A stretch of 61,640 nucleotides of DNA from a virus (taxonomy: Duplodnaviria; Caudoviricetes). Position 1 is the stretch's first letter, and each line of letters begins with the position of its first letter. The stretch is from positions 1-61,640 of the IMG/VR virus record IMGVR_UViG_3300032326_000597. One strand, given 5' to 3'. The position numbers and the translations under genes are program-made. Below are positions 1-14,315 of the stretch, piece after piece. Under the pieces are notes generated by a model. The model was not told the origin of the DNA. It did not search any database and worked only from the letters and a program-made list of their open reading frames with translations.

Positions 1-92
1 CACTCGATGTTCTCACACGTTGCCTGCATCGTGCTGTACTTAGGGATAAACTCCTGCCTACAGATCCTGCACTTCTTATTCCTCGCCTTCAT
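1..92 (-). CDS. NinG/Rap-like recombination endonuclease, N-terminus (runs off window)
   Basis: Hand translation MKARNKKCRICRQEFIPKYSTMQATCENIE; CxxC..F.P....Q..C pattern of the lambda NinG N-terminus. Confidence 0.7.
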   Translation of the reverse strand, partial: MKARNKKCRICRQEFIPKYSTMQATCENIE

Positions 93-100
93 ACGCTATC

Positions 101-376
101 TTATTTTTCGGCAGGTTTCCACTCTGCCTGTTCTTTAGCCAAGTTTGCCTTGACAGTCTCTTCAAGAATTGCTTTGAGATAGTCCGACTCTCCCGGCTCA
201 TCGATGTATTGTGCGAATTGTTCATAGTCTGCTTCTACAGCAAAGGTAGTTGATCCGTTCGTTGTACGCAAGACCGTGAAGTTCCAAAGTTTATTTTCTA
301 TGTTTGGGAACGACATGGTTATGGTTCCTGTAAAGTGTTCCACCTTCTTCGATGGCTTGTCAGAGATTTTAATCAT
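101..376 (-). CDS. hypothetical protein
   Basis: 91 aa ORF in a coupled minus-strand operon. Confidence 0.7.
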   Translation of the reverse strand: MIKISDKPSKKVEHFTGTITMSFPNIENKLWNFTVLRTTNGSTTFAVEADYEQFAQYIDEPGESDYLKAILEETVKANLAKEQAEWKPAEK

Positions 377-827
377 AGTTTTTAAAGTGTTTGTTGAAAA
401 AGTATTTTGGTATATCAGGATGACTTAGTTGTACCCTCTCGGCGTTGCCTCCGGTTGCCTTTATTCTTTCGGCCATGGGGACAAGGGACTTGTTTATGTT
501 TCCCCAGGCCGATGGGTTGTATACGATGGCCGTGTTTCTATACGTTCCCTTTAGGAAGGATGGCCTTGTCGATGGGTCTATCAGCCCCACAAACGCGTAT
601 CTGCTGTCGTAGTTCTTTAGCACGTCTATACCACCCGCGCTGAATCCCACAAGGGCTGTTGTTTGGTAGTCAACATCCGGATCAACCACGGCTAGTGGCG
701 TTCCGTATGGCACAATAAATATCTCGTACCTTGACCACATCCAATCGGGAACCTGCTTCTTCATCCAAGTAGGCGTGGCGTAGTGCATACCGCACCAGAT
801 GACTATGGTACACAGCAGGGGGTTCAC
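369..827 (-). CDS. small alpha/beta-hydrolase-fold protein
   Basis: LVGFSAGG nucleophile elbow (GxSxG), GLIDP strand, late His (SHPD). Confidence 0.55.
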   Translation of the reverse strand: MNPLLCTIVIWCGMHYATPTWMKKQVPDWMWSRYEIFIVPYGTPLAVVDPDVDYQTTALVGFSAGGIDVLKNYDSRYAFVGLIDPSTRPSFLKGTYRNTAIVYNPSAWGNINKSLVPMAERIKATGGNAERVQLSHPDIPKYFFNKHFKNYD

Positions 828-1039
828 AGCTTGATGTTGTTCTGTTCTAGCAGTCTGTAAAACTCTTGGTATATTTCATCGCACAGATCCCACTTGTCGG
901 CTGGCATCTCCTCGTACTTTACCTTGGCCCTGAGGTAGTTTCTTACGTCATTGAGCGCATGGTACATTTCACGAGCATCTACTGCGAGGTCGAACTCGTA
1001 CTGATCGTCCGGCAAATTAAATTCAAGTATTGCTTTCAT
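824..1039 (-). CDS. conserved phage hypothetical protein
   Basis: MKAILEFNLPDD start typical of a common aquatic-phage family; overlaps neighbours. Confidence 0.75.
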   Translation of the reverse strand: MKAILEFNLPDDQYEFDLAVDAREMYHALNDVRNYLRAKVKYEEMPADKWDLCDEIYQEFYRLLEQNNIKL

Positions 1040-1253
1040 GTGTTGTTTCTATTATTTCGTCAATTGGTTTAATTTCTTGTACATACCATAGATGCTCTTC
1101 TGCTTCTTGCAAGGTATAAAACAGGTCTCTTGCATACCATCCGTCGTAGTAGTCAGCCCACCAACGCTTCCATAGAAATTTCTTCTCCACTTGATAAAAG
1201 TAGTAGACCCTTCCGTCTGGCATTGTCCGTTTAACTATGCGTACATTCTTCAT
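1023..1253 (-). CDS. hypothetical protein
   Basis: 76 aa, ATGA-coupled to upstream cassette. Confidence 0.7.
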   Translation of the reverse strand: MKNVRIVKRTMPDGRVYYFYQVEKKFLWKRWWADYYDGWYARDLFYTLQEAEEHLWYVQEIKPIDEIIETTHESNT

Positions 1254-1411
1254 TTGTCACCTCCATTATGTCTGTGACCTAGTATTATTTGGTCTTTTCC
1301 TTTGTTACGTTCTAAGACATCTGACCATATCTTGATTACCATGTCCCGACGTGGAGATGGCTCCAATCTTGACCACGTATCAAGCACGTATTGAATTTCT
1401 TCTCTAGTCAT
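1250..1411 (-). CDS. 53 aa cassette protein ending GGDK (not in ORF track)
   Basis: MTREEIQYVLDTWSRLEPSPRRDMVIKIWSDVLERNKGKDQIILGHRHNGGDK; ATGA overlaps at both ends. Confidence 0.7.
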   Translation of the reverse strand: MTREEIQYVLDTWSRLEPSPRRDMVIKIWSDVLERNKGKDQIILGHRHNGGDK

Positions 1412-1557
1412 TTGTCACCTCCCTTTTTTATATGTTTCCATCTTTCTTTAAAAAAATTATGAAGCTGTTCAATAGTTGGGTTTTCGCTACCATATTCTTT
1501 AGGTGGATTCCTTGTTAAATAACTAAGGAGAGATTCCATTTTTCCTTGCTTTTTCAT
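1408..1557 (-). CDS. 49 aa cassette protein ending GGDK (not in ORF track)
   Basis: MKKQGKMESLLSYLTRNPPKEYGSENPTIEQLHNFFKERWKHIKKGGDK; ATGA overlaps at both ends. Confidence 0.7.
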   Translation of the reverse strand: MKKQGKMESLLSYLTRNPPKEYGSENPTIEQLHNFFKERWKHIKKGGDK

Positions 1558-1838
1558 TCGTCACCTCCTTTTGTTTCTTCCTTTTCCCTAGTCGCCAGCC
1601 CCGACTGCTCAACGGTTATTCCTTGGGACTTCCTGAGCTGTTTAGTCAACGTCTCATGCCTCCTAGCCCTAAGGACTGCCCGCACGTTCTTAATGATCTT
1701 GTTGGTCTCCGGGTCGATCACCTTGAAGTCCATGCTGTGAACGAGTCCGCAGTCGCAACAGGCCATCTTATATCCCTTCTCGATGGGCATCTGCCATTCG
1801 TTCTTGGGAACCTGATAAAAGTCTACTTTCTTTTTCAT
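1554..1838 (-). CDS. Cys-motif protein ending GGDE
   Basis: CCDCGLVH motif; ATGA-coupled. Confidence 0.75.
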   Translation of the reverse strand: MKKKVDFYQVPKNEWQMPIEKGYKMACCDCGLVHSMDFKVIDPETNKIIKNVRAVLRARRHETLTKQLRKSQGITVEQSGLATREKEETKGGDE

Positions 1839-2062
1839 TTGTCACCTCCGTATTCTTTATAGGTTACTGTTTTAATTTTATTTCCCCAGAATTCTTCAAT
1901 ACTACTAATCGCATCTTCTTCAGAGCCATGGATATATCTCATTGTTTTGCTTGTTGATAATTCAATTATATTTTCCCACCCACCAAAAAAATATTTTTTT
2001 ACTTGTGGAGTATAATTTTTTTGACCACTATTGAGATGCTCTATTTTGATTCTATACTTCAT
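1835..2062 (-). CDS. hypothetical protein ending YGGDK
   Basis: 75 aa, ATGA-coupled. Confidence 0.75.
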   Translation of the reverse strand: MKYRIKIEHLNSGQKNYTPQVKKYFFGGWENIIELSTSKTMRYIHGSEEDAISSIEEFWGNKIKTVTYKEYGGDK

Positions 2063-2274
2063 TTATCACCTCCGTATGTTTCGTTGTAAAATTGTGTTGC
2101 GCCTTGTCTTTCCCAATTAAAACTACCTTGTAAGTAGGCATCAATGATCTGATCGCGCTCCATTTCTTTGGCTTCCTCAATAATTTGATTTAACTTTTGC
2201 CATTCACTTGGGAATAGTTCAAAATAAACATCTAATTTCATGTGCAACCACTCTGCTGCTGTTTGCTTTTTCAT
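2059..2274 (-). CDS. conserved phage protein (KQTA.EWL...AKEME..QIIDAY...YNETYGGDK)
   Basis: Recognisable widespread Bacteroidota-phage family. Confidence 0.8.
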   Translation of the reverse strand: MKKQTAAEWLHMKLDVYFELFPSEWQKLNQIIEEAKEMERDQIIDAYLQGSFNWERQGATQFYNETYGGDK

Positions 2275-2287
2275 TTGTCAAATCGTT

Positions 2288-2521
2288 TTAGTTAATAATT
2301 GATATCAAGAACCCGATTATCCCACCGGCCTGGGTCGCCATGATGTCTCCATAGCTGAACCTCTTGCCGTTGTAGTTGTCATACAGCTCCTTTGCTACCG
2401 CTGCGGTAAACACCGCGATAAGGGAGAATATAGGCGTGATCAGAATGGAACATAGCCCATAGATTACTACGCCGTAGATGGCGTGGTTTGCCTTGTCTTT
2501 TTCGAACATTGGTAAATTCAT
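2288..2521 (-). CDS. small membrane protein (YfiM/DUF2279-like)
   Basis: DK..H...G, KE.YD, FS..D..AT..G motifs with TM helices; likely start 2521 or 2509. Confidence 0.6.
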   Translation of the reverse strand: MNLPMFEKDKANHAIYGVVIYGLCSILITPIFSLIAVFTAAVAKELYDNYNGKRFSYGDIMATQAGGIIGFLISIIN

Positions 2522-2564
2522 TTTACAAAGATAACTTATGTGTTGTTTTAATGCAATTATTTTT

Positions 2565-2597
2565 TTTGACTTTGGTGTTGTGGCCACCATATTTTTG
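2565..2597 (+). promoter_or_regulatory. Bacteroidota sigma-A promoter, antisense to the surrounding operon
   Basis: TTTG 2565-2568 and TATTTTTG 2590-2597. Confidence 0.55.
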
Positions 2598-2670
2598 CTT
2601 CATAATCCTTGTCTTTCGGTGTGTAGAGAGCGGCGAAAGGCTAAGGAAGAAGGAATAAACCCCTTTGCCC

Positions 2671-2706
2671 AAGCCCTGGTCTCTCTACACGGGGCTTTTT
2701 CTTTTT
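2671..2706 (+). terminator. terminator/attenuator hairpin
   Basis: aagccctg-loop-cggggctt then T-tract; loop is complementary to gtgtagagag at 2621-2630. Confidence 0.65.
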
Positions 2707-3056
2707 ATGTACTACGGTCTTAAAAGTGTTTCACCCGTTCCGTCCAAGCAGTCTCCGGCGGAGAATGAAAGATTCATTGTCATCCAACACAAGCCCCTCT
2801 TGAAATTTGCCTTTACAGGACTTGACCAAGAAGGGGAGATCAGTCCATGCCGCTTTCTGCTCTGTCCAGCACCCGACAACAGAACCATACTGAAAAAATC
2901 AGTCTTCGGACTGACGACCTCCAGGCATTTGGACTCCGTCACGGTATGCGGGTAGGTTGAATTGGCTTGTACTCATCTTGCTTGAAGGTGGGGAAAATCG
3001 TCTTGACTTCTTGTTTCACTAGAGGTTATTTCAGGCGGTATAGGGGATGCTATATC

Positions 3057-3281
3057 CTATAGTGAAATGGTGTCTAAAAAAGCCTCAATATCTTCGACAA
3101 TCGGATACTCAAGCGTTCCAACTATGTTTACCTTCTCGCCCACCGGATACAAATCAAGACGCGAATTGGGGCCGATTAAACGCATCTGCCAAGGCGTGAT
3201 ATAGTAAAGGTCATAGTTGTTGTCTTCAGCGTAATATTCAGCCGCTTGTGCCCAAAATTGAATGCGTTTTTCCTTGGTCAT
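3057..3281 (-). CDS. hypothetical protein
   Basis: 74 aa, ATGA-coupled. Confidence 0.7.
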   Translation of the reverse strand: MTKEKRIQFWAQAAEYYAEDNNYDLYYITPWQMRLIGPNSRLDLYPVGEKVNIVGTLEYPIVEDIEAFLDTISL

Positions 3282-3709
3282 ATTTCAAGTTGTTCATTAG
3301 GGTCAGGAATGTAAATGTCTAGCGTCTCAGCCGCAAATTGCTTGACGTGTTCCATGTATTCTATAAACTCCTCCGTTGCAAGCTCCGACGTTTTGCGTGG
3401 AATCTTCATGACTTCACCGGATGTCGGGTCGGTAAACTCCGTGTAGAGAAACCTTCCCTTGAGGAACTCATGCGTGAGGTCTCGGTCAACATCATGTCCA
3501 AGCTCGCGTAGTCTCTGCGATATCATGGCCACGACCACGCCCCAATAGTATGCGTTCTGCACGTCCGACCGGAACCGCTTCTTCAGTTTGACTTCGATGG
3601 TCACAGCCAAGTCCGTCTCACGGGACATGGCTCTGACGTCCTCTTCGAAGAGGGGGCGGTTGTAGATCCGCAACGCCCCCTGTGGTGTGATTACTGCGTT
3701 GTGCTTCAT
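3278..3709 (-). CDS. NinB-like recombination protein
   Basis: RS..QNAYYW, TSEL...EF.EY.E.V..FAA motifs. Confidence 0.7.
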   Translation of the reverse strand: MKHNAVITPQGALRIYNRPLFEEDVRAMSRETDLAVTIEVKLKKRFRSDVQNAYYWGVVVAMISQRLRELGHDVDRDLTHEFLKGRFLYTEFTDPTSGEVMKIPRKTSELATEEFIEYMEHVKQFAAETLDIYIPDPNEQLEI

Positions 3710-3939
3710 TGTATCCTCCACACTCTGACTCCGGTATCGAATACTTGAGTCTTGAATTTGTATTTGTCATTCTTCTTGCAGAACATACAAGCAGCTGCTG
3801 ATATTTTCTTGCGTACAGGTTCGGGGTCTGCATCTGTAATAAAGAATGAGTCTCCTACTACCATGTCCCTAAACGGGTATTTGCCAGACCTTGTGGTTTG
3901 TTTGGGTGCAGGCACATTCTTTTCGATTTGTATTTTCAT
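3706..3939 (-). CDS. small basic putative DNA-binding protein
   Basis: IEKNVP.P...KYPF.DM.VGDSF...GVRVWR family pattern. Confidence 0.75.
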   Translation of the reverse strand: MKIQIEKNVPAPKQTTRSGKYPFRDMVVGDSFFITDADPEPVRKKISAAACMFCKKNDKYKFKTQVFDTGVRVWRIQ

Positions 3940-4256
3940 TTGGTTGGTGTATTAAAATAATTATTGGTTACTAAATAATCGTACAGGCTGTCGAGGTCTT
4001 TGCATATCTCGTCCTTGTGTTCGTTATGCGCCTTCATGTCCTCTCTGAGTTCATATAGGTACGCCTTCTCGTACATGAACCATGAGAACCAGTCCATGCC
4101 TTCCTTGGTCAGCACGGCCTCCCATAGGTGCGTGGTTACGTAGTATTCGGAATCCATGAACTCGTTGAGGTCGATGCCCATCTTGTAGGCCGAGCTGACC
4201 TTGTTCGACGTCTCCTTCATGCGCTCACACGCTTTCTTGAATGCTATCTTTTTCAT
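3936..4256 (-). CDS. hypothetical protein
   Basis: 106 aa, EG.DW.SWF.YE motif; coupled. Confidence 0.75.
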   Translation of the reverse strand: MKKIAFKKACERMKETSNKVSSAYKMGIDLNEFMDSEYYVTTHLWEAVLTKEGMDWFSWFMYEKAYLYELREDMKAHNEHKDEICKDLDSLYDYLVTNNYFNTPTK

Positions 4257-5248
4257 GCCTCGTCCTCCTCTTCTGTTACGCCAAACCTCTTGGCTTGTTC
4301 TACTATTTGATTGAAGTCGTATCCGGCTGATTCTATCTCGGCGCGTACCTCCTCGTTCTTGGCGGTTATCTTTTCGCCTTTAGCGTAGCGGGCAATCACA
4401 CGGGTCCAACGTGCAACCTGAGACTTGACTGAGTCAGCGTAGTCTCTTGGTTCTTCGAAGTCGTATAGGAACTTGAGGTAGTTTGAATACTCGATGCCGA
4501 AGTTCTTCTTGAACTTGCCGTCTTCTACTATGATGTGTTTCTCAAGCGGAGGGCGTGTGCTCGACGTGTAGTAATGCGTGATGCCAGCAAGGTCTGCGAG
4601 GTACTCCTGCTCTAACTCTTCGTTAGGCTCGTATTGGAAGCACATCATTCGCAAGTCATCCTTGCAGATGTATACTAACTCTCCGTTGAGTCCAAGTCCC
4701 TTCATGTAGTGGAACAACTGAAGTCTGTGGTGCTTGATGGGTTTCTCGGTCTTCTCCATCATATCCATCACGAAGGATGAGCATGACTTGATTTCGAGAA
4801 CCTTCTTCTCTAATTCCTTGTCACCAAACTTCTCGTATAGCTTCTCTGCGATGTACAGGGACGATGCTTGGATAGACTCCGGCAGATGCGAGGAGGTAAT
4901 ATCTTGCTTGGCACGTTCGATGTCAATCTTGCCACCCGCTAGGAAGTCTAGGCGCCCCGATACCTTGAGCATGTTCGGGTACTCCACCATAACACGTTCT
5001 TGTGTATTGTTGATCAGTCCAGCTCGCTCTAGAACGTATCGTACCACCCATTCGACAAGGTTACCCGCTTCGAACTTGCGGAGGCTTCTCATGTTGGGAG
5101 GGTTGGTTGGTGTAACGGCTTTCATCTTGAGGTAACGGTCAACGAGAGGCTGTCCGATTTCAGATGCATAGCAATAGTCTCGTGGCTCTAGCGCACGTTG
5201 TTGGGAATACACGCATTCATTCCATAGTTGTTGTAGATTCCAATTCAT
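4253..5248 (-). CDS. PD-(D/E)XK (Cas4/RecB-like) exonuclease
   Basis: ASEIG, GRLD, EIKS, QLFHY motifs. Confidence 0.8.
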   Translation of the reverse strand: MNWNLQQLWNECVYSQQRALEPRDYCYASEIGQPLVDRYLKMKAVTPTNPPNMRSLRKFEAGNLVEWVVRYVLERAGLINNTQERVMVEYPNMLKVSGRLDFLAGGKIDIERAKQDITSSHLPESIQASSLYIAEKLYEKFGDKELEKKVLEIKSCSSFVMDMMEKTEKPIKHHRLQLFHYMKGLGLNGELVYICKDDLRMMCFQYEPNEELEQEYLADLAGITHYYTSSTRPPLEKHIIVEDGKFKKNFGIEYSNYLKFLYDFEEPRDYADSVKSQVARWTRVIARYAKGEKITAKNEEVRAEIESAGYDFNQIVEQAKRFGVTEEEDEA

Positions 5249-5258
5249 GTTGATTTAT

Positions 5259-5564
5259 TTAATTGTAAGTTGTTTTTACTTCTTCCCACACCCAGCCGTT
5301 TCCGATTCGGTAGTAGGTTTGGCCGTCGATGGTGGTTGTCGGCACGACGTCGCTACATTGCTCGTCTCGGTCGGTTTCGATAAGTGTTTCACCTTCCCAC
5401 CTGAATGTGGTCGCGCTGTCCTCGTCGAATGGTTCAGTTGCAAGGAAGCGCATTACCTCCGCCTTGCTCAGGTATGGCATTTCCCATCCGTTCCACCGTT
5501 GTCCGTCCGTGTAACCATCGTAAACGTCGCTGATTACATCGATTGAAAATTTAGTTCTCTTCAT
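5259..5564 (-). CDS. acidic hypothetical protein
   Basis: G.RWNGW.MP...IG.GWVWEE. Confidence 0.75.
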   Translation of the reverse strand: MKRTKFSIDVISDVYDGYTDGQRWNGWEMPYLSKAEVMRFLATEPFDEDSATTFRWEGETLIETDRDEQCSDVVPTTTIDGQTYYRIGNGWVWEEVKTTYN

Positions 5565-5748
5565 TTCGCTGAATGTTAAAAAAGATTGTTTTGATTTCGT
5601 TTGGTATATTCTTGAGCAGCCTTCCGCTCGATTGGTAGCTGGGTGAGACCTTGCCTATGTACTTCACGTTCTTGCCTATGATTGCATAAACGTCACGCGA
5701 ATGTTTTACAATTTCATACCCATCTTTGGTTTTAAATAGCCTTGTCAT
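5551..5748 (-). CDS. hypothetical protein
   Basis: 65 aa ORF in operon. Confidence 0.65.
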   Translation of the reverse strand: MTRLFKTKDGYEIVKHSRDVYAIIGKNVKYIGKVSPSYQSSGRLLKNIPNEIKTIFFNIQRNEEN

Positions 5749-5796
5749 TTGGATTGTAAATATAGTGTAACTTCAATGGTATCAGCTAATCTTAAT

Positions 5797-6117
5797 CTAA
5801 TTAAGACTATTTAGCTCTTCAGCGAACACCTCAGCGAGCACATCTGCGAGGTCTGCTTCTTCTGATTTAGTCAGTAGTTTGCGAAACGCGCGAGCATCCA
5901 CCCACCATACATTGTCGGTCTTCTCGTCGTTCATGTCGCACACAGGACACTTGGTAAATGGCCTGTCAGATTTCAATCCGATGTCCACAACGAGGATACA
6001 TCCACAGCTATTTCTTTGTATAGCCATAGCTGTGAACACATCCCCCTTGAGGAATACACCTTGTGAGTGGTCTTTGATTGCGACGATGTCGTCGCCGGTG
6101 CGGTAGTCGATTATCAT
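5797..6117 (-). CDS. Cys-containing hypothetical protein
   Basis: CGC and CPVC; likely start MIIDYR. Confidence 0.7.
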   Translation of the reverse strand: MIIDYRTGDDIVAIKDHSQGVFLKGDVFTAMAIQRNSCGCILVVDIGLKSDRPFTKCPVCDMNDEKTDNVWWVDARAFRKLLTKSEEADLADVLAEVFAEELNSLN

Positions 6118-6165
6118 TTGTCTACGTCTTTTAAGAGCCACATCATTAGGTTGAAGATAAGATGG

Positions 6166-6534
6166 TCAATTACGCGTTTCATTTGCGATGATTGTTGCTA
6201 AGTGTCCATGTGCTAAGTGATACTGTCCCATAAACTCGGAGCGATCAATAAAGGTAAACTCCTTGTAGTTCATTCGCAGTCTTTGTATCTCATCATTCTG
6301 CTCAGTTTGTGTCGGCTCAATCTCGTCAGTCTCTATTGCTGGAATGCTGAGGAAGTCGGTAATCGTTATGCAGTAACCTTGCTTGGTTATCATGCCGTAG
6401 GCGAATCTACCCTTGTACCCTTGCAGATACTTGAAGAATAGGGTCTCCTCAATGTAGTCGGTTGTTTCTTCGGTGTAGTGTCCGTCGTCTTCGGGGTTGG
6501 ACAACTTCCAATCGTCATAGTTGTGGTAGTTCAT
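6166..6534 (-). CDS. hypothetical protein
   Basis: YDDWKL.NP N-terminal motif. Confidence 0.75.
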   Translation of the reverse strand: MNYHNYDDWKLSNPEDDGHYTEETTDYIEETLFFKYLQGYKGRFAYGMITKQGYCITITDFLSIPAIETDEIEPTQTEQNDEIQRLRMNYKEFTFIDRSEFMGQYHLAHGHLATIIANETRN

Positions 6535-6722
6535 TCTTCAAATTTGTTAAGGATTATTGTATAGATTTCGATTCGTTCTTTAGCATTGTCGATGCAGTCT
6601 CTGATGATTTGGTCGCCCTCCCATGCTGGCTTTTTCAGTTGCTCTTCATATTTCATAACCGCTCTCCATTCGTCCATGATTTGTTGTTGGATGTGGTTGA
6701 TTACTTTCTCTTCAGTACTCAT
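6531..6722 (-). CDS. hypothetical protein
   Basis: 63 aa helical, coupled. Confidence 0.7.
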   Translation of the reverse strand: MSTEEKVINHIQQQIMDEWRAVMKYEEQLKKPAWEGDQIIRDCIDNAKERIEIYTIILNKFEE

Positions 6723-6978
6723 TTTTTATAGTGTTAATTGTTACGTTAAATTCTTTCTCTGCCCATTCTATGTCCTGTTCTATTTCACCCATGTCCATGT
6801 AGCTGAATGACTCAAGCACATTCGAGCTGTCTTTGTCGTGGGTGTCGTGAACGTCCATGTAAACGATTCCGGTTTCTTTGTCCTCGTAAACTTTGATGTC
6901 AAACTCTGCATCGTATTCATAGGATGCATTTCGCATCCATTGTGAGAAACTTACGTTGTGATAATTGGATTGTTGCAT
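6712..6978 (-). CDS. acidic hypothetical protein
   Basis: 88 aa, A-rich leader. Confidence 0.7.
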   Translation of the reverse strand: MQQSNYHNVSFSQWMRNASYEYDAEFDIKVYEDKETGIVYMDVHDTHDKDSSNVLESFSYMDMGEIEQDIEWAEKEFNVTINTIKNEY

Positions 6979-6995
6979 AGTGTTATTGTTTATGG

Positions 6996-7388
6996 TTATC
7001 CAAAAATTATTTCATTGAAAAACACTTGTTGCAGAATTACATCAGCGGTAATTGCATCTCCATTCTCGTTGATGGCATCCATCAAATGTGCGATGCTAGT
7101 GTTTTGCACTTGCTCGTGTACGTCTTTCATTGTAATGGTGCGCGTGTATTCGCCTTCGCATCCAATGTCTTCCATTGTCAATGCCCCTCCCTTTCTAAGT
7201 ATGCTCATTAGGATGTCTTCATGGCAAAGTTCGTAGCCAGAGCCATCATCCTTTTTTCGGGCATCTTGATATTGTTGTAGGTCGTAAGTCAGCTCAAGGT
7301 CGTAACCACCTTCAACCCATTCAAGCCCGTCGCATAGTGCGGTAAGAAATAGTTCTTCTGATTCTTCGTGTGTTAGTAATACTCTCAT
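6996..7388 (-). CDS. conserved acidic phage protein
   Basis: C-terminal DA..AD..LQ..FF.E.IFG family motif. Confidence 0.8.
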   Translation of the reverse strand: MRVLLTHEESEELFLTALCDGLEWVEGGYDLELTYDLQQYQDARKKDDGSGYELCHEDILMSILRKGGALTMEDIGCEGEYTRTITMKDVHEQVQNTSIAHLMDAINENGDAITADVILQQVFFNEIIFG

Positions 7389-7454
7389 AATAAATTAGTG
7401 TTTAAATGTGGGTGCAATATAATTTTAAATACTGCACCCACTTGTTAACGATTG

Positions 7455-7652
7455 TTAATTTGCCCATCCGCACCCGCCGTTGTCGCGGTTCACCCAATTA
7501 TTGGTGTGTGTTGTTCTGAGGTGGTCTTGATATCCAGCCCCCCTGTGAGTTGTGCATGACGAGAGCAGAGCTGCGATTATTGCAATGATTCCGATTGTTG
7601 CTACGATGCTGTCGTAGATTTTGAGTTTCTTTTGTTTGTCCATGATGTTCAT
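7455..7652 (-). CDS. small lipoprotein
   Basis: Hydrophobic stretch followed by LSSC lipobox. Confidence 0.65.
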   Translation of the reverse strand: MNIMDKQKKLKIYDSIVATIGIIAIIAALLSSCTTHRGAGYQDHLRTTHTNNWVNRDNGGCGWAN

Positions 7653-7671
7653 AGTGTTTATGTTTTATTGT

Positions 7672-8166
7672 TTATGATTCTAATTCGTATCTCCATAGCT
7701 CGCAAGCCCATGCCATATCCCCTTGCTCTTCGCTTATGCGCTCGCCGTTTTGATACTCGTAGCTTCCGCAGTTATATCCTAAATCTTCGTCGGCGAATGA
7801 TACTTCAAAAGTGTTTTGAGGGAATAAAAAACTGAGCTTTTCAATTACTGCAATCGGTGTACTCCATGCTGTTTGAAATTCAATGTAATGCTCGGTTTCT
7901 TCTATGTCGTAGGCGTTCCACTTCGTACCCCAATTACTCAGCCTCCAATCGTACCAATTAGACACCCCATACTTTCGCATCAGCTCATGTTGTTTGTTTA
8001 CATCGTCTTCGGTCTTCATTGGGGTCGGGGCGGGTGTATCATTTAGTTCCTCCGGCATGGGAATAATCCTGTTGAAGTCTATCGCTGCTTTTCCGCGAAT
8101 GAATGATTTAACTTCTTGTTGGTTGTCGCCATGAATGTATAGGCGGTGAATTACGTGGTTTGGCAT
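7672..8166 (-). CDS. YubB/DUF1281 ferredoxin-like domain protein
   Basis: MPNH, DFN.IIPMP, WYDWR..NWGTKWNA, F.TAWS.P, ADED.G.NCG. Confidence 0.85.
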   Translation of the reverse strand: MPNHVIHRLYIHGDNQQEVKSFIRGKAAIDFNRIIPMPEELNDTPAPTPMKTEDDVNKQHELMRKYGVSNWYDWRLSNWGTKWNAYDIEETEHYIEFQTAWSTPIAVIEKLSFLFPQNTFEVSFADEDLGYNCGSYEYQNGERISEEQGDMAWACELWRYELES

Positions 8167-8192
8167 GTTGTTTACTTTTTATTTGTTGGTTG

Positions 8193-8504
8193 TTATTGAT
8201 TTTTGTTGTTACGCATGTCGTTATGATTCTGCACATATTGGCTGTTGTCTATTTCGGTGAAGAACATATTTACAAAGTCTTGATTCCAGCCATCGCCCAC
8301 ATATATATGGCGTAGGCTTTTCAGAATCGAATCACGATGGGTAGAGATTTCCATTTCGCTTTCGTTAGCGAGTTCGGGGTTCAATAGATACAATACCGCA
8401 TCCCTAAGGAAGTCGAGGTCGTTCATGTGCTTGTTAATCTCTTTAGTCGTGTAGTCACGATAGATGATGTTGGAGTAGTAAACTCGAATCTTTTCGTTTG
8501 TCAT
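8193..8504 (-). CDS. hypothetical protein
   Basis: 103 aa, aacaacATG start. Confidence 0.7.
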   Translation of the reverse strand: MTNEKIRVYYSNIIYRDYTTKEINKHMNDLDFLRDAVLYLLNPELANESEMEISTHRDSILKSLRHIYVGDGWNQDFVNMFFTEIDNSQYVQNHNDMRNNKNQ

Positions 8505-8508
8505 GTTG

Positions 8509-8673
8509 TTATGGATTTTGTTGTTGTAGAATTGTTGGTGTTTGGTATACCTCTTTCATGTAGTCTCTTAATGCTATTTGCATTTGCAAAGTCTCATTGA
8601 ATTGGGAAGTATGGTACATGATGAAGTTGTTGATTTCATCCGCGATTAGTTGGTCGATTTCTTTTTGTGTCAT
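8509..8673 (-). CDS. 54 aa hypothetical protein (not in ORF track)
   Basis: MTQKEIDQLIADEINNFIMYH...; aacaacATG start. Confidence 0.6.
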   Translation of the reverse strand: MTQKEIDQLIADEINNFIMYHTSQFNETLQMQIALRDYMKEVYQTPTILQQQNP

Positions 8674-8687
8674 GTTGTTGTGTTTAA

Positions 8688-8834
8688 TCAGAATGAATTA
8701 AGGTGTTCTATTTCGTCATCAGTTAGGTATATGATAAGCCCGTTGTTTAGCTTTATCCAATTTTCGCCTGTGCTTTCGATTGTAAGTCCTACCAACATAT
8801 CGTTGGCTTGCTCGTTGAATTTCTGAGTTGTCAT
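8688..8834 (-). CDS. hypothetical protein
   Basis: Likely start MTTQKF with aacaacATG context. Confidence 0.6.
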   Translation of the reverse strand: MTTQKFNEQANDMLVGLTIESTGENWIKLNNGLIIYLTDDEIEHLNSF

Positions 8835-8838
8835 GTTG

Positions 8839-9081
8839 TTATTGATTTTTAGATTGGTAAGCATATACGTCATTTAGTCCCGACAGCGAGCCAATTTCTA
8901 CGCCTATATCGTTGCCGTGGTTCAGCGCGTGCTGCAACATTAGCTGTCCTGTAATTAGCGATTCCGTGTCGTCTTCGTATAGCATGTAAATTGGCAGCGC
9001 GCCCAATGAGAATAGCTCTTTGGCTGAATCGGTGACAATTAGCCACACGAAGCCATCTTTTGTAATTTTTACGTTGTTCAT
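8839..9081 (-). CDS. hypothetical protein
   Basis: DGFVWL.V...Y.LY.DD.ESLI...IG.E.G family pattern. Confidence 0.75.
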   Translation of the reverse strand: MNNVKITKDGFVWLIVTDSAKELFSLGALPIYMLYEDDTESLITGQLMLQHALNHGNDIGVEIGSLSGLNDVYAYQSKNQ

Positions 9082-9086
9082 ATTGC

Positions 9087-9365
9087 TTAGTTGTTATTGA
9101 TTAATACTTTGCTGTCGTTTGTGCATTCGTACCACTCGCCATCGTGCTTCTCATACCACTCGCCTTCATCTTGCCAGTCCCACTCAGTATAGCAATAGGC
9201 CTCGTCGTCGTATGCCTCGTCGAGGTCGGCATATCCAATCTCAATCGCGTAGCGTTCGGCATCATCCTTCTCAATGAAGTACATTAGAGATTCTTCGAAT
9301 AGGAAACCCTCATTCATGCCTTCGTTAGTCGCGGAGCATATCCGCGCAAATCTTTCGTTGCTCAT
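9087..9365 (-). CDS. highly acidic aromatic-rich protein
   Basis: About 26 D/E versus 6 K/R by hand count. Confidence 0.75.
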   Translation of the reverse strand: MSNERFARICSATNEGMNEGFLFEESLMYFIEKDDAERYAIEIGYADLDEAYDDEAYCYTEWDWQDEGEWYEKHDGEWYECTNDSKVLINNN

Positions 9366-9374
9366 GGTCTTAAA

Positions 9375-9650
9375 TTATTTGATTATTGGTAAAATTTCGC
9401 TGACTAGCTGACGTCCGTATTTTTTCGAGCTCGCCTCGTCTATATAGTGTTTTTTGATTCGGCTGTATCTCGCGGTCTTTTTTGGAATGCTCGCGTACAC
9501 GATATATCCAGCCGTTTCTTCGTGATTCGTCCACACTTGCACCTGTAACTCGCTCGCGTAGTTTATGCCGCACAAATTCACTTTGGTTGGTTTGTAAAGG
9601 TCTAGCGATACATTGCCCAACGTAGTTTGGAAATTGAAATTCTGATACAT
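9375..9650 (-). CDS. hypothetical protein
   Basis: Likely start MYQNF after A-rich leader. Confidence 0.65.
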   Translation of the reverse strand: MYQNFNFQTTLGNVSLDLYKPTKVNLCGINYASELQVQVWTNHEETAGYIVYASIPKKTARYSRIKKHYIDEASSKKYGRQLVSEILPIIK

Positions 9651-9667
9651 TGCTTTTTTGTGTTTGG

Positions 9668-9835
9668 TTATACTTTTTTGATTATTTCGTATTTTGAGAA
9701 GGTCTGCTCTATCATTCGCCCGCGTTCGGGGTATATGAACCGAAGCAATAAACCCGACGGCGTTTCCTTGTAACCTTTGAACGTTCCTACTTTGCCGTTG
9801 GATAGTAGGCACTGCGTGTTGGTTGATAGTGTCAT
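9668..9835 (-). CDS. 55 aa hypothetical protein (not in ORF track)
   Basis: MTLSTNTQCLLSNGKVGTFKGYKETPSGLLLRFIYPERGRMIEQTFSKYEIIKKV fills the gap exactly. Confidence 0.6.
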   Translation of the reverse strand: MTLSTNTQCLLSNGKVGTFKGYKETPSGLLLRFIYPERGRMIEQTFSKYEIIKKV

Positions 9836-9840
9836 GGTGT

Positions 9841-10026
9841 TTAATAGTTTAGAAGGTCTCTTAAATCTCTTTTTGCGAACATTATTTGTTCCTGTATCAT
9901 GCTGAGTTGAAAACGCGTGCTGTTTACATTGCCTCCGTTGGTCATGAAGCTAGTTGTATACACTTCGCTGTGCTTTTTTTCTAGTGCTTTGATTTTGCGC
10001 TTTAGGGCTGAAATTTGCTTTTTCAT
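9841..10026 (-). CDS. coiled-coil hypothetical protein
   Basis: 61 aa, aacaacATG start. Confidence 0.7.
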   Translation of the reverse strand: MKKQISALKRKIKALEKKHSEVYTTSFMTNGGNVNSTRFQLSMIQEQIMFAKRDLRDLLNY

Positions 10027-10057
10027 GTTGTTGTTTTTTATTGTTGTTGAAATTTTA

Positions 10058-10103
10058 GAAACAGGGAGCGGAATCGAACCGCTCCTTGCACCATTGCCTG
10101 TTT
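10058..10103 (-). ncRNA. tRNA-like minihelix (acceptor stem plus T-arm only)
   Basis: AAACAGG-caatggtgcaag-GAGCGG TTCGATT CCGCTC-CCTGTTT. Confidence 0.65.
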
Positions 10104-10287
10104 AGCAGTCTCTATTTTCTAGCTCTTTTTCAATTAGCTCGATTTCCTTTTTAACCGCTTCTGAAAACGTGTCGCCGTCGTTAAATGCATGGCGATATGA
10201 ACCCGTGAGCATTTTGTTTATTTCGTTCATACATTCAAGGCGCTCGCACAATTCGAAATCGCTCATAATTTGATAAGTGTTTTTCAT
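10102..10287 (-). CDS. hypothetical protein
   Basis: 61 aa ORF. Confidence 0.7.
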   Translation of the reverse strand: MKNTYQIMSDFELCERLECMNEINKMLTGSYRHAFNDGDTFSEAVKKEIELIEKELENRDC

Positions 10288-10309
10288 ATTGCTGTTGTTA
10301 AGTGTTTGT

Positions 10310-10600
10310 TTAATACATTGAAGCTATCAGCTGCTCCGCTTCGCCGTAGCTTTCAAAAAATGTTTCTTCGCCGTCTTCGAAGTTGGTTACTAGATACTCA
10401 ACGCCGCGCCCTAACATTGAGCATATCGAAATGCCGTTTTCTAGTGCTATATATACATAGCCGCTGTTTGAATTAAAGCCGACATCCATAATTGATTCGC
10501 CCGCGCACTCGTCCGCGTATGCTTGAAAACAAACTGCGAGCCCTTGCGCTTCGCAAAATGCGATTGAATCGTTGATTCCGTGAATTTCTAAAGTGTTCAT
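10310..10600 (-). CDS. very acidic early protein
   Basis: About 16 D/E and 1 R; GFN.NSGYVY.ALE motif. Confidence 0.75.
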   Translation of the reverse strand: MNTLEIHGINDSIAFCEAQGLAVCFQAYADECAGESIMDVGFNSNSGYVYIALENGISICSMLGRGVEYLVTNFEDGEETFFESYGEAEQLIASMY

Positions 10601-10623
10601 GATGTTGAAATTTTAAGAGTTTA

Positions 10624-10905
10624 TTATTTTATGTATTGAAAAACTTTTTCCGCTGTGTAGTCGCTTTTGATACACTTGTAAACGTTGCTTCCTTCGTTTA
10701 TAAGTTGAAGTAGTTTAGCTGTTAGTTCTGAGCGCTTGTAACAGCCAAACAAGGCGAACGGGCTTGTGTGTCCCGCAATCATTCCAATAAAATATTGAAC
10801 TGCGCTTTTGTCGGCGTTGCGCTGGTTTGTTACATAAAGTGCGAATGCTTCGCGCACTTGTTGCGCTGTGTAGCTGTTTAGCTGTGTGAGGTTTTCGGGG
10901 GTCAT
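10624..10905 (-). CDS. first gene of the leftward early block, hypothetical
   Basis: 93 aa, A-rich leader. Confidence 0.65.
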   Translation of the reverse strand: MTPENLTQLNSYTAQQVREAFALYVTNQRNADKSAVQYFIGMIAGHTSPFALFGCYKRSELTAKLLQLINEGSNVYKCIKSDYTAEKVFQYIK

Positions 10906-11752
10906 TTTGTTTAATTTTCGGCTAAGGTAGTCTAATTTTTGTCTAAATCAATAGCTTAATGAAATTTAGAATGATTCTAAATAAGAACATTCTCATTTTC
11001 AGCGATTTAAGTGAAAAAAATTTTTTTTTGGGGCTCTTTTTTTGTATATTTACGAAGCCAAAATACCCGGAATGAACAGGTATTTTTTGACGAGTCCAAA
11101 CAGCCAAACGCGGGCAAATAGTCGAAAGCTTTGCTCGATTTTCACAAAGGTAAAAGAGACAGGAAACAAGGGAAGGAGGGAAGAAAGGAAGCAAGCCGAA
11201 AGGGTAACCCCTCACGCGGGCAAATTTGCAACGGACAGCCCAAACACATAAGAGAGAGTTAAGAGAATAAGTAAAGAGCAATAAAAGCACTCATGCGCGC
11301 ACACGCATTCGGCAAACTCAATTTGAGGTTACCCCAACAAAAGAAACCCCGCACCCGCACAACTGCAAGGAAGCCCAATAAAAGCGGGCAATCTACGCGG
11401 GCGGCATATATGGTCGGCGGGCTGTTTGCATGCCTTTAAACGGGCTGAAATGCCTATTTGGAATCATTCTAAATAAGAGTGTGCGGTCTGGATGTGAAAC
11501 AATATCTACCCCGCGCACCCCTCCAAACGGGCAAATACTGCATGAAATACCCCGAAAAGGTCTGGCATAAATACGCCACGCATGGGACGCGAAATATAAC
11601 GTGCTGACTATCAATGCAAAAGTGCGGTTCGCCCACGCGGTGGAGACAAAAGACCCGCGGCATGGACAGGGGTGGCAAGATAGGCACCCCACCCCGTTTG
11701 CCAAGTCGACTTCGGGTCGGGCAGGGGGCGGTGGCCGTGTGGGGGGTGACCC

Positions 11753-11877
11753 CAACCAATATGAGTTTATGAATTATTCACCCCCACCAGGATGAGTTTG
11801 TAAAACGCGTACTACAACCATGATGGGTTTATAGTTTATTACCCCCACTATGATGAGTTTACAACCAGCATGAGTTT
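11753..11877. repeat. five phased ~16-bp direct repeats, consensus CMACCAnnATGAGTTT
   Basis: ATGAGTTT cores at 11761, 11792, 11823 (ATGGGTTT), 11853, 11870. Confidence 0.85.
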
Positions 11878-11909
11878 TCAGAATTTGTTGGATATTTCAT
11901 AACTCCATG

Positions 11910-11917
11910 TATATTTG
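11910..11917 (+). promoter_or_regulatory. Bacteroidota -7 box
   Basis: TATATTTG upstream of ATG 11931. Confidence 0.6.
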
Positions 11918-11930
11918 TAAAAAAAAGGCT

Positions 11931-12269
11931 ATGTTATACGCTTCAGAGGAATATATGGACAACATGAATGGCATTAGTTACGTCAGTCAGTTTTTGAAGA
12001 AGAGAAAGAAGAAGGGCGAGGGTTCTAAGGACGAGGTTACTTGCGGAAGGGATGGCGATAAGGCTTGTGGTGAGGAGCGTGGTGAGGTTCGCCAGGGCGG
12101 AGATGTAAAGGAAGGCAAGACGTCGTCTGGTTCAAGTGGCGAGAAAAACGAGGTCTTGACTCAAAAGCAAGCAGCCAAGAGAAAGAAGGAGTTTGAGGAG
12201 TTTCGTGAGAAGGAGAAAAAAAGACTGGAGAAGAACTCTGCATTTCAAATAGACAGAAGCAAGGCATAA
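11931..12269 (+). CDS. K/E/G-rich low-complexity protein
   Basis: ORF downstream of promoter box. Confidence 0.65.
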   Translation: MLYASEEYMDNMNGISYVSQFLKKRKKKGEGSKDEVTCGRDGDKACGEERGEVRQGGDVKEGKTSSGSSGEKNEVLTQKQAAKRKKEFEEFREKEKKRLEKNSAFQIDRSKA

Positions 12270-12272
12270 GGC

Positions 12273-12392
12273 ATGGCAAAGTCACTAGGAAACGGTCAGA
12301 AGACCACGTTTGGCAAGCGCAAGGAGGGGAAGCCCTTTAAGCGTAAGTCGCCAATGGACAAGAATGTAAAACCATCAAGAGGACAGGGATGA
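12273..12392 (+). CDS. 39 aa basic protein (not in ORF track)
   Basis: MAKSLGNGQKTTFGKRKEGKPFKRKSPMDKNVKPSRGQG. Confidence 0.7.
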   Translation: MAKSLGNGQKTTFGKRKEGKPFKRKSPMDKNVKPSRGQG

Positions 12393-12544
12393 AAGCAAGG
12401 GCAGGACTATACGCAAACATTCACGCCAAACGCAAGCGAATAGCTGAGGGATCAGGCGAGAAGATGAGGAAGCCCGGAAGCAAGGGCGCACCTAAGTTGA
12501 AGGACTTCATCAAGTCCAAGCTGACTGCTAAAAAGAAAAAATAA
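12389..12544 (+). CDS. 51 aa basic protein (not in ORF track)
   Basis: MKARAGLYANIHAKRKRIAEGSGEKMRKPGSKGAP..., a recognisable phage family; ATGA-coupled. Confidence 0.8.
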   Translation: MKARAGLYANIHAKRKRIAEGSGEKMRKPGSKGAPKLKDFIKSKLTAKKKK

Positions 12545-12557
12545 AAAAAAATAAAAA

Positions 12558-12977
12558 ATGGTTAAGGCATATACACTGCAAGACAAGATTGTACAACAGG
12601 GGTTCAACGACTTCGAGTCGTTTGTTGGCCTGGTGTTTAAAAAAGATGACGGAGACTCGACTAAGCGGTCGTCTCTTAACGAGCTACAGGCGTCCGGTGC
12701 CACACAGATAAATGTCGGACAGGTTGCTGCCGCTATATGTGACGACAACAGTCTCTATGACACGTATGGGGTCACGGAGTTGATGTTGTCTGACCCAGAC
12801 GTTTCACCCGTCTTAAGCAGGGTGATGAACGCATGGGCTGCTGTTGGTAAGACGCAGTACGTTGTTATCAGGAGGCTTGACTCCTTCCCTGTAATCGACC
12901 CTTCGAGCCCGTTGGTTCCGGTGGCTGTCTGTTACAAGGTAGTTGTTGACGCGTACCTGGCACCTGTTGCACCATAA
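12558..12977 (+). CDS. hypothetical protein
   Basis: 139 aa, A-rich leader. Confidence 0.75.
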   Translation: MVKAYTLQDKIVQQGFNDFESFVGLVFKKDDGDSTKRSSLNELQASGATQINVGQVAAAICDDNSLYDTYGVTELMLSDPDVSPVLSRVMNAWAAVGKTQYVVIRRLDSFPVIDPSSPLVPVAVCYKVVVDAYLAPVAP

Positions 12978-13003
12978 AAAAGTAAAATCTTAATTCAATC
13001 AAT

Positions 13004-13111
13004 ATGAAAAAGACTCAAAACATGCCAGGTAAGCCAATGACGCCAAATCAAAAAAAGGCGTTGGCACTTAAAGAAAAGTCAAAGACTCCAATGCCAAAAT
13101 TTAAGAAGTAA
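13004..13111 (+). CDS. 35 aa K/P/M-rich basic protein (not in ORF track)
   Basis: MKKTQNMPGKPMTPNQKKALALKEKSKTPMPKFKK; TAATG-coupled to next gene. Confidence 0.6.
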   Translation: MKKTQNMPGKPMTPNQKKALALKEKSKTPMPKFKK

Positions 13112-13374
13112 TGGCAAAGACAGCGGCATGGCAACGTAAGGAGGGCAAGAACCCGGAAGGCGGACTAAACGCCAAGGGCCGTGCCTCGTATAAGCGTGAA
13201 ACCGGAGGCACACTGAAGCCCCCAGTGTCGGCCAAGCAGGCAAAGAAGTCTCCCAAGGCCGCTGCCCGAAGAAAGTCGTTCTGTGCAAGAATGAGCGGAA
13301 TGCCAGGCCCGATGAAGAAGCCTAATGGCAAGCCAACTCGGAAGGCGTTAGCCCTCCGCAAGTGGGACTGCTAG
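13111..13374 (+). CDS. DUF6321-like basic protein
   Basis: AWQRKEGKNP.GGLN.KGR...RRKSFCARM...ALRKW.C. Confidence 0.8.
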   Translation: MAKTAAWQRKEGKNPEGGLNAKGRASYKRETGGTLKPPVSAKQAKKSPKAAARRKSFCARMSGMPGPMKKPNGKPTRKALALRKWDC

Positions 13375-13416
13375 AAAAAACACGGTCTCGTGTGGGGGAC
13401 CGTTGTAGTTACGAAT

Positions 13417-13443
13417 AAAGCCGGGGTAATACCCGGTTTTTTT
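13417..13443. terminator. bidirectional intrinsic terminator
   Basis: aaagccgggg-taat-acccggttttttt between convergent operons. Confidence 0.8.
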
Positions 13444-13534
13444 ATTCGTCAGACTTTTCAACGATCCTAACGACGGCATACACCCCAAGATATAGGGCCA
13501 CCATGGCGATTGTTCCTTGGATAAAGGGATCCAT
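13442..13534 (-). CDS. 30 aa single-TM microprotein
   Basis: MDPFIQGTIAMVALYLGVYAVVRIVEKSDE. Confidence 0.6.
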   Translation of the reverse strand: MDPFIQGTIAMVALYLGVYAVVRIVEKSDE

Positions 13535-13721: not shown

Positions 13722-13726
13722 TTTTC

Positions 13727-14310: not shown

Positions 14311-14315
14311 ATGTT

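Follow-up and report, generated by a model that had tools for sequence, protein, structure and literature searches.

What does a single 15-nt sequence do when it joins one mini-gene after another in a genome that otherwise seems to lack Shine-Dalgarno (SD) elements, and why are its copies nearly identical? This question is raised by the linker GGAGGTGAYRAATGA, which recurs at the junctions of a gene chain in the virus record IMGVR_UViG_3300032326_000597 of IMG/VR (94% complete); the whole stretch analyzed, 61,640 nt, is called the window in the following. The answer favored here, which is considered rather probable, is that the linker acts as a translational coupling signal, composed of an extended SD element and an ATGA stop/start overlap, and that it delimits the exchanged cassettes as well, probably serving as their crossover site, in the nin-region equivalent of a probable Bacteroidota phage.

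The 15-mer was matched exactly five times in the window, always on the minus strand (Table 1). By chance, 0.46 matches were expected with up to two mismatches, and five were reached in none of 100 shuffles. The chain consists of six abutting minus-strand open reading frames (ORFs), each pair being joined by a 4-nt ATGA overlap of stop and start codon. The last five ORFs begin at a linker ATG. The tails of the first five, GGDK or GGDE, result from reading the linker as GGA GGT GAY RAA TGA; joints of this type were confined to the five chain starts and found at none of the remaining starts of the window. The linker comprises 8 bases fully complementary to the 3' tail of 16S rRNA (GGAGGTGA), 3 spacer bases and ATGA, in which the upstream stop overlaps the downstream start. 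The gap from GGAGG to AUG is 6 nt, and each downstream gene is read in frame -1 with respect to its upstream neighbor. A second stop codon, TGA, lies within GGAGGTGA, and therefore upstream genes entering in two of the three frames terminate inside the linker.

The first-pass annotation of this DNA had described five consecutive non-homologous ORFs ending in GGDK or GGDE, and one 15-mer carrying SD element, stop and next ATG at each junction. Coordinates, tails and BLASTP bore out the former, and the five exact copies bore out the latter; the sixth ORF was found to start at a linker as well. When the six chain proteins were compared all against all, no E value fell below 0.003 (six-sequence search) and the best alignments covered the common tails only. 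Since BLASTP found nothing beyond these tails, the chain genes are non-homologous at the BLAST level. Substitutions by codon position numbered 14/2/26 in the cassettes shared with relatives (comparisons of the gene families fam30, fam25 and fam6), and it follows from this pattern that the mini-genes are real coding sequence. None of them matched Pfam at E ≤ 0.01, and the single PHROG match was that of the 75-amino-acid (aa) gene to phrog_2010 (unknown function, E 0.0088). Among deposited phage genomes, no match was obtained to the locus or to window positions 1-25000. A peptide-level role of the GGDK tail was also considered and was rejected: two upstream genes read the 15-mer in another frame, and the tails vary (GGDK, GGDE and GGEQ). 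The linker is conserved as nucleotides and not as a peptide.

A set of 64 related viral loci was retrieved by means of the exonuclease encoded upstream of the chain (75-98% amino-acid identity). Exact copies of the 15-mer (0-7 per locus) were found in 22 of the 64 loci, without exception on the coding strand and on the downstream side of the exonuclease. Counted at called gene starts, with one mismatch permitted outside positions 9-10, the linker has 68 copies in the 64 loci and the window: 66 lie between the genes for NinB and for the conserved family fam7, and two lie downstream of NinB in loci without fam7. Outside this block, no linker was found at any of 1203 ORF starts upstream, 572 downstream and 167 unplaced (plus-strand sets, spurious short ORFs included). 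The block itself measures 293-4991 nt in the 45 loci holding both anchors, and its gene content and order vary widely among phages with exonucleases that are 92-98% identical. The plug-in cassette array proposed in the first-pass annotation is supported by this finding, gene order not being fixed in relatives, and the alignment of relatives that it had suggested placed gain, loss and replacement of genes at the 15-mer.

Distinct boundary contexts in the block amounted to 245, including 56 with a linker and 43 with an ATGA overlap but no linker. Among the 56 linker contexts, 48 have the 4-nt overlap, in two the TGA inside GGAGGTGA serves as stop of the upstream gene, and six are of other kinds. 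They combine 43 upstream and 38 downstream flank types; ten types on either side occur with two or more partners, the maximum being six. The information content was about 2 bits over the 15-mer (0.8 bits at positions 9 and 10), which is inflated by choosing the contexts through the motif, and mostly 0.0-0.7 bits in the flanks. Across the 15-mer, identity in 30-nt bins was 0.87-1.0 on one side and 0.13-0.47 on the other. The long fam30 allele, for example, is followed by three different genes (515, 381 and fam6), and fam25 is preceded by seven different contexts, with the switch at the 15-mer; the same identity switch was seen at X to fam30, fam122 and fam155 junctions, X being the upstream gene.

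Two further types of joint were observed in the relatives. The family fam30 also has a 73-74-aa allele that lacks a linker and ends at a stop of its own, and this short allele takes part in a second recurrent junction that lacks an SD element (..AAATACTGAAAGAAYATGA: stop, 6 nt, start) and has three downstream partners (L043, L041, L059, L024, L013, L025). In-frame fusions of two cassettes in which the linker stop is lost were also found, e.g., ...YYNETYGGDMSKQ... (L025:12484-12858; P0001, P0006, P0068). These fusions suggest that linkers may also mediate joining at the level of domains.

Variation at the same positions was seen in environmental assemblies. Parts of the stretch are present in 20 metagenome runs from 11 studies, all as assembled contigs, and four of the runs were compared over window positions 1-4300. 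Nineteen of the 20 runs either carry the label of a freshwater or lake-water metagenome or come from the probable source study (labeled only 'metagenome'), and one names no study. Among the matches listed, which provide examples rather than rates, contigs jump from 1426 to 1831 and from 1853 to 2285, both replacements being linker-bounded within 4 nt, and loose contig ends lie at 1262, 1264, 1831 and 1853. One jump has a single end at a linker (1854 to 2158), and another lies wholly inside the fam6 gene (2095 to 2248). Short low-depth contigs of the probable source run match 2058-2095 only and are unlike the flanks on both sides. Parts of the array without cover in a run were not counted as evidence. 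The joints listed for these assembled contigs are all skips, with no back-joining joint of the kind formed by circles or tandem intermediates among them. Contigs of the probable source run also break at 811-840, around the fam36/fam13 ATGA overlap (824-827), a boundary without linker, which hints at variants there. As judged from relatives and contigs, the linker marks the exact points of cassette gain, loss, replacement and reordering.

The cassettes are not restricted to close relatives. In a 31.9-kb phage record (G411, 97% complete) compared with window positions 1-20000, 94% identity was found over 1407-1575, i.e., exactly linker-fam515-linker. Beyond this unit, the record matched only over 747 nt (68% identity) and in three pieces, each 32-48 nt long, located at the first linker and at the fam6 gene. 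In a second record (G413, 39 kb, 100% complete), 221 nt matched at 81%, starting 4 nt ahead of a linker, along with two short pieces. A single linker-gene-linker unit thus moves between phages that are otherwise almost unrelated.

The commonest 15-mer was found in at least 123 stretches of viral contigs; among the matches listed, 20 have DNA homology to the exonuclease group and 23 have at least two junctions. Within whole records, linker copies were clustered on one strand (counts of 7, 3, 3, 2 and 4, vs. 0 in the reversed control), with one of the three copies in G003 lying about 16 kb away. Three unrelated records were inspected, namely a 106-kb fragment (36% complete), a complete 163-kb genome and a 24-kb fragment. 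They harbor chains of 3-4 GGDK-ending genes among A/T-rich starts without SD elements, next to genes for thymidylate synthase, phosphoesterase, homing endonuclease, primase-helicase and methyltransferase. Among 44 larger ORFs scanned within about 6 kb of these chains, none matched NinB, NinG or an exonuclease. It had been proposed in the first-pass annotation that adjacent Nin/exonuclease recombination genes insert or excise the cassettes; this role was not supported, as linker chains occur in three unrelated records without such genes among the larger ORFs scanned nearby.

The family of the first chain gene, fam6, is a very large, unnamed phage family with at least 7515 members at E ≤ 1e-5 among 8000 candidates scored and with no Pfam domain. 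Almost all of the 120 source names listed are 'hypothetical protein'. The tail GG[DE][KEQ] is present in 89 of the 120 best matches, a count that is biased by the tail being part of the profile. An AlphaFold model of fam6 gave a confident three-helix fold (predicted local distance difference test score of 86), for which no match was found in the PDB (best E 4.4).

Combining these observations, the favored mechanism would operate as follows. The array genes would be co-transcribed on the minus strand. A ribosome terminating at UGA would be held by SD/anti-SD pairing and would then restart at the overlapping AUG, and any cassette placed between two linkers would then need neither its own promoter nor its own leader for expression. 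Recombination between arrays would use the common 15 nt (31-38 nt after fam6 genes) as substrate. We infer both that the SD element functions at the linker and that microhomology is a cause of exchange rather than a mark of surviving recombinants.

The SD element is anomalous in this genome. About 85 other called starts are preceded by A-rich sequence without an SD element (e.g., aacaacATGA), as the first-pass annotation had stated and as start inspection and pairing energies confirmed. With an assumed 15-nt sequence for the 16S 3' tail, which makes the energies relative only, the five linker starts showed predicted pairing of -15.0 to -17.9 kcal/mol, compared to a median of -1.95 kcal/mol for the 94 called genes. 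They are the strongest of these 94, and just four others reach -10 kcal/mol, three of which are ATGA overlaps (NinB start, the gene after the exonuclease, and 25217). A strong SD element was present at 8 of 15 ATGA overlaps vs. 1 of 79 other starts in the window (Fisher p = 5e-7), and still at 3 of 10 vs. 1 of 79 when the five linkers were left out (p = 0.004). In the relatives, an SD element was found outside the block at 2 of 19 conserved ATGA-overlap gene pairs and at 0 of 83 non-overlapping families. Since SD elements are rare at overlaps outside the block, phages of this group do not generally require them where genes overlap. Two of the ATGA overlaps located elsewhere in the window, at 3706-3721 (NinB start) and 4253-4270 (gene after the exonuclease) on the minus strand, carry an SD-like GGAGG that is kept in 29 and 26 related loci, respectively.

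Such an anomaly could also arise if the chain were foreign, i.e., derived from phages of SD-using hosts, with the SD element being a functionless relic or the motif being an RNA-processing, protein-binding or cassette-fusing frameshift site. Among the matches listed, the 15-mer is frequent in viral contigs whatever their G+C content, the G+C content is 39.8% in window positions 1001-2000, compared to 38%-50% in other 1-kb windows and a genome mean of 44%, and the downstream frame of -1 would suit a frameshift. However, at least four separate phage backgrounds that lack SD elements elsewhere contain such chains, placed behind a TAnnTTTG-type box, and no conserved RNA structure was found at the linker: SD accessibility was 0.43 with native and 0.45 with shuffled flanks, without any occluding structure, and the mean minimum free energy was -10.5 with native and -11.3 with shuffled flanks, without excess structure. 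As to the frameshift variant, slippage from AAA to CAA would be poor, and known -1 stimulators lie farther away than the SD element does here. A foreign origin of this kind is considered highly improbable.

The weight of the SD anomaly depends on the host, which is probably a member of the Bacteroidota, the virus itself being an uncultured freshwater phage. Pointers to this host are the A-rich starts without SD elements, the TAnnTTTG box directly upstream of first genes of the array, a BT4734-like_N domain in a primase-like protein, and Bacteroidota labels on 5 of 11 contigs from metagenome-assembled genomes (MAGs) with fam6 homologues, binning of phage contigs being unreliable. The two-box Bacteroidota promoter pattern was not significantly enriched in the window (6 vs. 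2.45 expected, reached in 6 of 100 shuffles). In 5 MAGs, the linker had no match. In 401 Bacteroidota genomes, no linker array was found; 61 scattered single matches, none adjacent to another, were obtained vs. 14 in the reversed control, and 12 of 12 matches inspected had no real downstream ORF.

According to PMC7797042, PMC9976891 and PMC13000453, Bacteroidia ribosomes sequester the anti-SD and are blind to SD elements, and in F. johnsoniae rpsU is the one gene with a strong SD element, of a kind used by ribosomes without bS21. Huber 2019 (PMC6728339) states that termination-reinitiation coupling arises from an intragenic SD element and an ATGA overlap, and that in Bacteroidetes SD elements are used for neither initiation nor reinitiation. 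A literature search on SD use in Bacteroidota phages found nothing on linkers of the present type, which is not proof of absence from print.

As an alternative, translation might be specialized: the extended SD element would steer the cassettes to ribosomes with a free anti-SD (bS21-poor or phage-modified), as in the case of host rpsU, expression would be conditional and coupling secondary. In F. johnsoniae, an extended SD element is reported to be needed for stimulation by ribosomes without bS21 (PMC9976891), the linker pairs over at least 8 nt, and a linker-chain record encodes a bS21 homologue. This record, G002, is the 106-kb large-phage fragment with a linker chain, and the gene is located at G002:C1:84307-84465 (L216; PF01165, E 2e-8). 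No bS21 gene was found, however, in the 94%-complete record that constitutes the window, the first chain gene has no SD element, and the strict ATGA overlap indicates reinitiation rather than free initiation. Specialized translation as the main role is regarded as improbable. A broader proposal, which remains tentative and on the unlikely side, would make the linker a universal 15-nt 'plug' in aquatic phages of SD-blind Bacteroidota: the extended SD element would release or trap the sequestered anti-SD when a ribosome terminates or is poor in bS21, any promoterless cassette would be translated, and the same plug would be the crossover site through which single genes move between unrelated phage lineages.

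Use of the shared linker as a recombination substrate, as proposed in the favored reading, would explain why its copies look related by descent. Function could fix 12 of the 15 positions, i.e., the 8-nt SD element and ATGA. At the three spacer positions, the 56 contexts have CAA (35), GCA (12), CGA (5), ACA (2), AAA (1) and TAA (1), and the ratio of GAC to GAT in linkers was 40:1, compared to 57:43 in the long ORFs of the genome (p = 6e-9), although T would lengthen the SD pairing. The spacer flavor follows genome and lineage: GCA occurs in L005, L006, L010/L011, L022, L030 and L060, and spacers beginning with C occur in most others. L044 is the sole genome mixing the GCA type with C-type spacers, and L058 has ACA, AAA and CAA. 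Individual cassettes, fam269 and fam155, occur with either flavor. Decayed linkers drop the SD element and retain the remainder (GAAGGTGAC.., AAAGGTAAC.., CGATTTGAC..). This suggests that the linker copies are related by descent or conversion rather than by pure convergence; the argument is suggestive and not decisive because lineages are not independent samples.

Convergence is nevertheless what would be expected if the linker were an expression signal only. Selection would then favor one optimal combination of SD element, spacing and overlap, and exchange would proceed by illegitimate or flanking-homology recombination anywhere, with survivors keeping gene boundaries (Hendrix-type model). 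In agreement with this, function alone fixes the 12 positions of GGAGGTGA and ATGA, the chain of the lambda nin region is built alike with junctions that are not identical, linker-less boundaries in the block swap partners too, as does the second, SD-less junction type, and linker chains exist without Nin genes within about 6 kb. Yet the free spacer positions are not free, as seen from the GAC:GAT bias and the lineage-specific flavors, decayed copies lose the SD element and keep the remainder, and the best match by a wide margin between two phages that are otherwise almost unrelated is a single cassette together with both its linkers. In addition, the published Bacteroidetes rule offers no reason for an SD optimum. 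The signal-only explanation is considered unlikely on balance, but it is to be taken seriously.

Several observations weigh against a linker that serves both coupling and crossover. To our knowledge, a homology of 15 nt is short by the standards of the phage annealases known, and the assembled contigs showed no recombination intermediate. Linker-less boundaries in the block are also exchanged: distinct upstream types per locus were 26/37 for linker, 21/65 for other ATGA and 32/66 for gapped boundaries, a crude comparison in which linker boundaries are ahead about two-fold but which is confounded by allelic divergence. Within 6 nt of a linker edge lay 100 of 3189 internal BLAST segment ends, vs. 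0.85% of positions, and this count is weakly informative, most ends arising from divergence in conserved flanks. No SD element is present at 17 of the 19 conserved ATGA-overlap pairs outside the block. Finally, the host is only inferred, and SD-based coupling is unexpected in such a host because Bacteroidia/Bacteroidetes are reported not to use SD elements.

The surroundings of the array are compiled in Table 1. As the chain lies between homologues of NinB and NinG, it is the counterpart of the lambda nin region, and the locus appears to be a nin-region equivalent in the form of a hyperplastic array of small accessory genes. The assignment of NinG was supported by the L058 fam8 protein (Pfam NinG, E 9.4e-45); the contig ends inside NinG, before any Q-side region. 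In some relatives, a gene for a 3'-phosphoadenosine 5'-phosphosulfate (PAPS) reductase, which is NinC-like, directly follows NinB. The family fam13 starts at a linker in L040 and L059. The true start of fam46 is probably the ATG at 2521, giving 77 aa and a nearly leaderless mRNA: TATCTTTG at 2533-2526, 4 nt before this ATG, fits the TAnnTTTG box, and in relatives this box precedes other first genes of the array. Elsewhere in the window, a tRNA-Ala gene (anticodon CGC) is located in the early region (14481-14554, minus strand), and a ferritin-like protein (Pfam E 7.7e-19) is encoded at 53555-54046 on the plus strand between giant proteins of 2490 and 1394 aa.

Table 1. Linkers, chain genes and neighboring genes in the window (loose ends, breaks and joints refer to metagenome contigs).
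Feature	Position	Strand	Remarks
Linker 1	2059-2073	minus	GGAGGTGATAAATGA; short contigs match 2058-2095 only, flanks unlike both sides
Linker 2	1835-1849	minus	GGAGGTGACAAATGA; joints 1426 to 1831 and 1853 to 2285; loose ends 1831, 1853
Linker 3	1554-1568	minus	GGAGGTGACGAATGA
Linker 4	1408-1422	minus	GGAGGTGACAAATGA; contigs of probable source run break at 1408-1437; joint 1426 to 1831
Linker 5	1250-1264	minus	GGAGGTGACAAATGA; loose ends at 1262 and 1264
Degenerate linker without SD element	2271-2285	minus	CGATTTGACAAATGA; 11 of 15 positions match the linker; 13 nt behind stop of preceding gene
First chain gene, fam6, 71 aa, tail GGDK	2059-2274	minus	MKKQTAVEWL...AKAMEKEQI...YYNETY family
fam514 cassette, 75 aa, tail GGDK	1835-2062	minus	among the 64 loci, seen in the window only
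fam30, long allele, 94 aa, tail GGDE	1554-1838	minus	linker at both ends
fam515 cassette, 49 aa, tail GGDK	1408-1557	minus	common, with both linkers, to 32-kb phage record at 94%
53-aa cassette, tail GGDK	1250-1411	minus	linker at both ends
Last chain gene, fam25, 76 aa, ends HESNT	1023-1253	minus	linker start, no GGDK tail; 7 upstream contexts in relatives
NinG/Rap homologue, N-terminal 30 codons, cut by contig end	3-92	minus	30/30 identical to L058 fam8; downstream conserved flank
fam7, 91 aa, conserved, downstream anchor of variable block	101-376	minus	45 members, always before fam8/NinG
fam36, 139-152 aa, in some relatives only	369-827	minus	family comparison
fam13, 71 aa, widely conserved	824-1039	minus	here overlaps previous gene by 17 nt, no linker
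fam46, small membrane-like protein, 100-aa ORF	2288-2590	minus	weak phrog_26616 match; contig loose ends at 2521
NinB/Orf recombination mediator, upstream conserved flank	3278-3721	minus	phrog_72, E 2.9e-17; Pfam NinB, E 0.003, below cut-off
Cas4-/RecE-like exonuclease	4253-5248	minus	query that retrieved the 64 related loci

Parts of this organization are known from other systems. The lambda ninR region was reportedly described as a 'chain of interlinked genes' (Kroger & Hobom 1982, Gene 20:25, as cited in PMC7166090). On inspection of lambda, 6 of 10 consecutive junctions from P to Q were 4-nt overlaps with an SD-like element upstream, and their sequences differ from each other. Lambda ninR and the present array share small accessory ORFs between NinB/Orf and NinG/Rap, 4-nt overlaps and an SD-like element in the 3'-terminal part of the upstream gene, and NinC, annotated as PAPS reductase, follows NinB in lambda as the NinC-like gene does in relatives. 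In contrast, the lambda junctions vary and the host uses SD elements, whereas the 15-mer is preserved here nearly letter for letter in an otherwise SD-less genome, and the linker recurs in unrelated phages outside a nin context.

Short conserved boundary or linker sequences have been proposed for lambdoid module exchange (the Susskind-Botstein idea, as presented in PMC2327257). The present case resembles that proposal in the short sequences common to module borders and in mosaic breakpoints exactly at gene boundaries; it differs in that the linker is countable (56 contexts), doubles as a translation signal and bounds single genes rather than functional modules. PeSL elements, which consist of a promoter and a stem-loop terminator, are described in Arbiol 2010 (PMC2839356) as intergenic elements of hyperplastic regions in T4-type phages, with mini-circles shown. 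They likewise are repeated regulatory motifs bordering indels or replacements of small ORFan genes in a hyperplastic region, but the present linker is 15 nt long and partly coding, carries SD element, stop and start, is predicted to act at the level of translation and has no structure. Comeau 2014 (PMC4122927) is a further paper on PeSL. Integrons differ as well, the linker being without a fold like that of attC, which consists of imperfect inverted repeats, and no integrase family was found among the proteins scanned (window positions 101-11755 and the blocks of the relatives).

With termination-reinitiation pairs, the linker shares the 4-nt ATGA overlap and a strong SD element at working distance in the upstream gene. 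Bacteroidetes are presented in PMC6728339 as the one group without SD reinitiation, so that the phage departs from the rule of its host if the host call is right. Flavobacteriales rpsU is similar in its unusually long complement to the 16S 3' tail in an otherwise SD-less setting (PMC7797042, PMC9976891, PMC13000453), but it is a single autoregulated host gene with a 5' leader, unlike the serial internal phage cistrons described here. The rpsU-type pairing is given as about -20 kcal/mol (PMC9976891), a value that is not directly comparable to the -15.0 to -17.9 kcal/mol of the linker, obtained with an assumed 15-nt tail and another program. Thus, the nin chain, linker-bounded mosaicism, PeSL-like hyperplastic regions and ATGA coupling are known, and what is new is one nearly invariant linker common to phage lineages within genomes otherwise without SD elements.

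These findings bear on phage mosaicism, where the choice between linker-mediated homologous exchange and random joining followed by selection rarely has a countable linker; here, 56 contexts are available. The mosaic record comprises single-gene units shared by phages that are otherwise almost unrelated, and a protein family with tails that record the linker and with no fewer than 7515 members. If the host were an SD user, the translation side would be ordinary, and cassette exchange alone would remain of interest. With a host of the Bacteroidota, in contrast, a perfect 8-nt SD element would be maintained by these phages at dozens of internal cistrons despite SD-blind ribosomes. F. johnsoniae strains depleted of bS21 or with an ablated anti-SD already exist. 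Should the tentative proposal of a universal plug be true, it would amount to an integron-like gene-capture economy that operates through general recombination and the ribosome, without an integrase.

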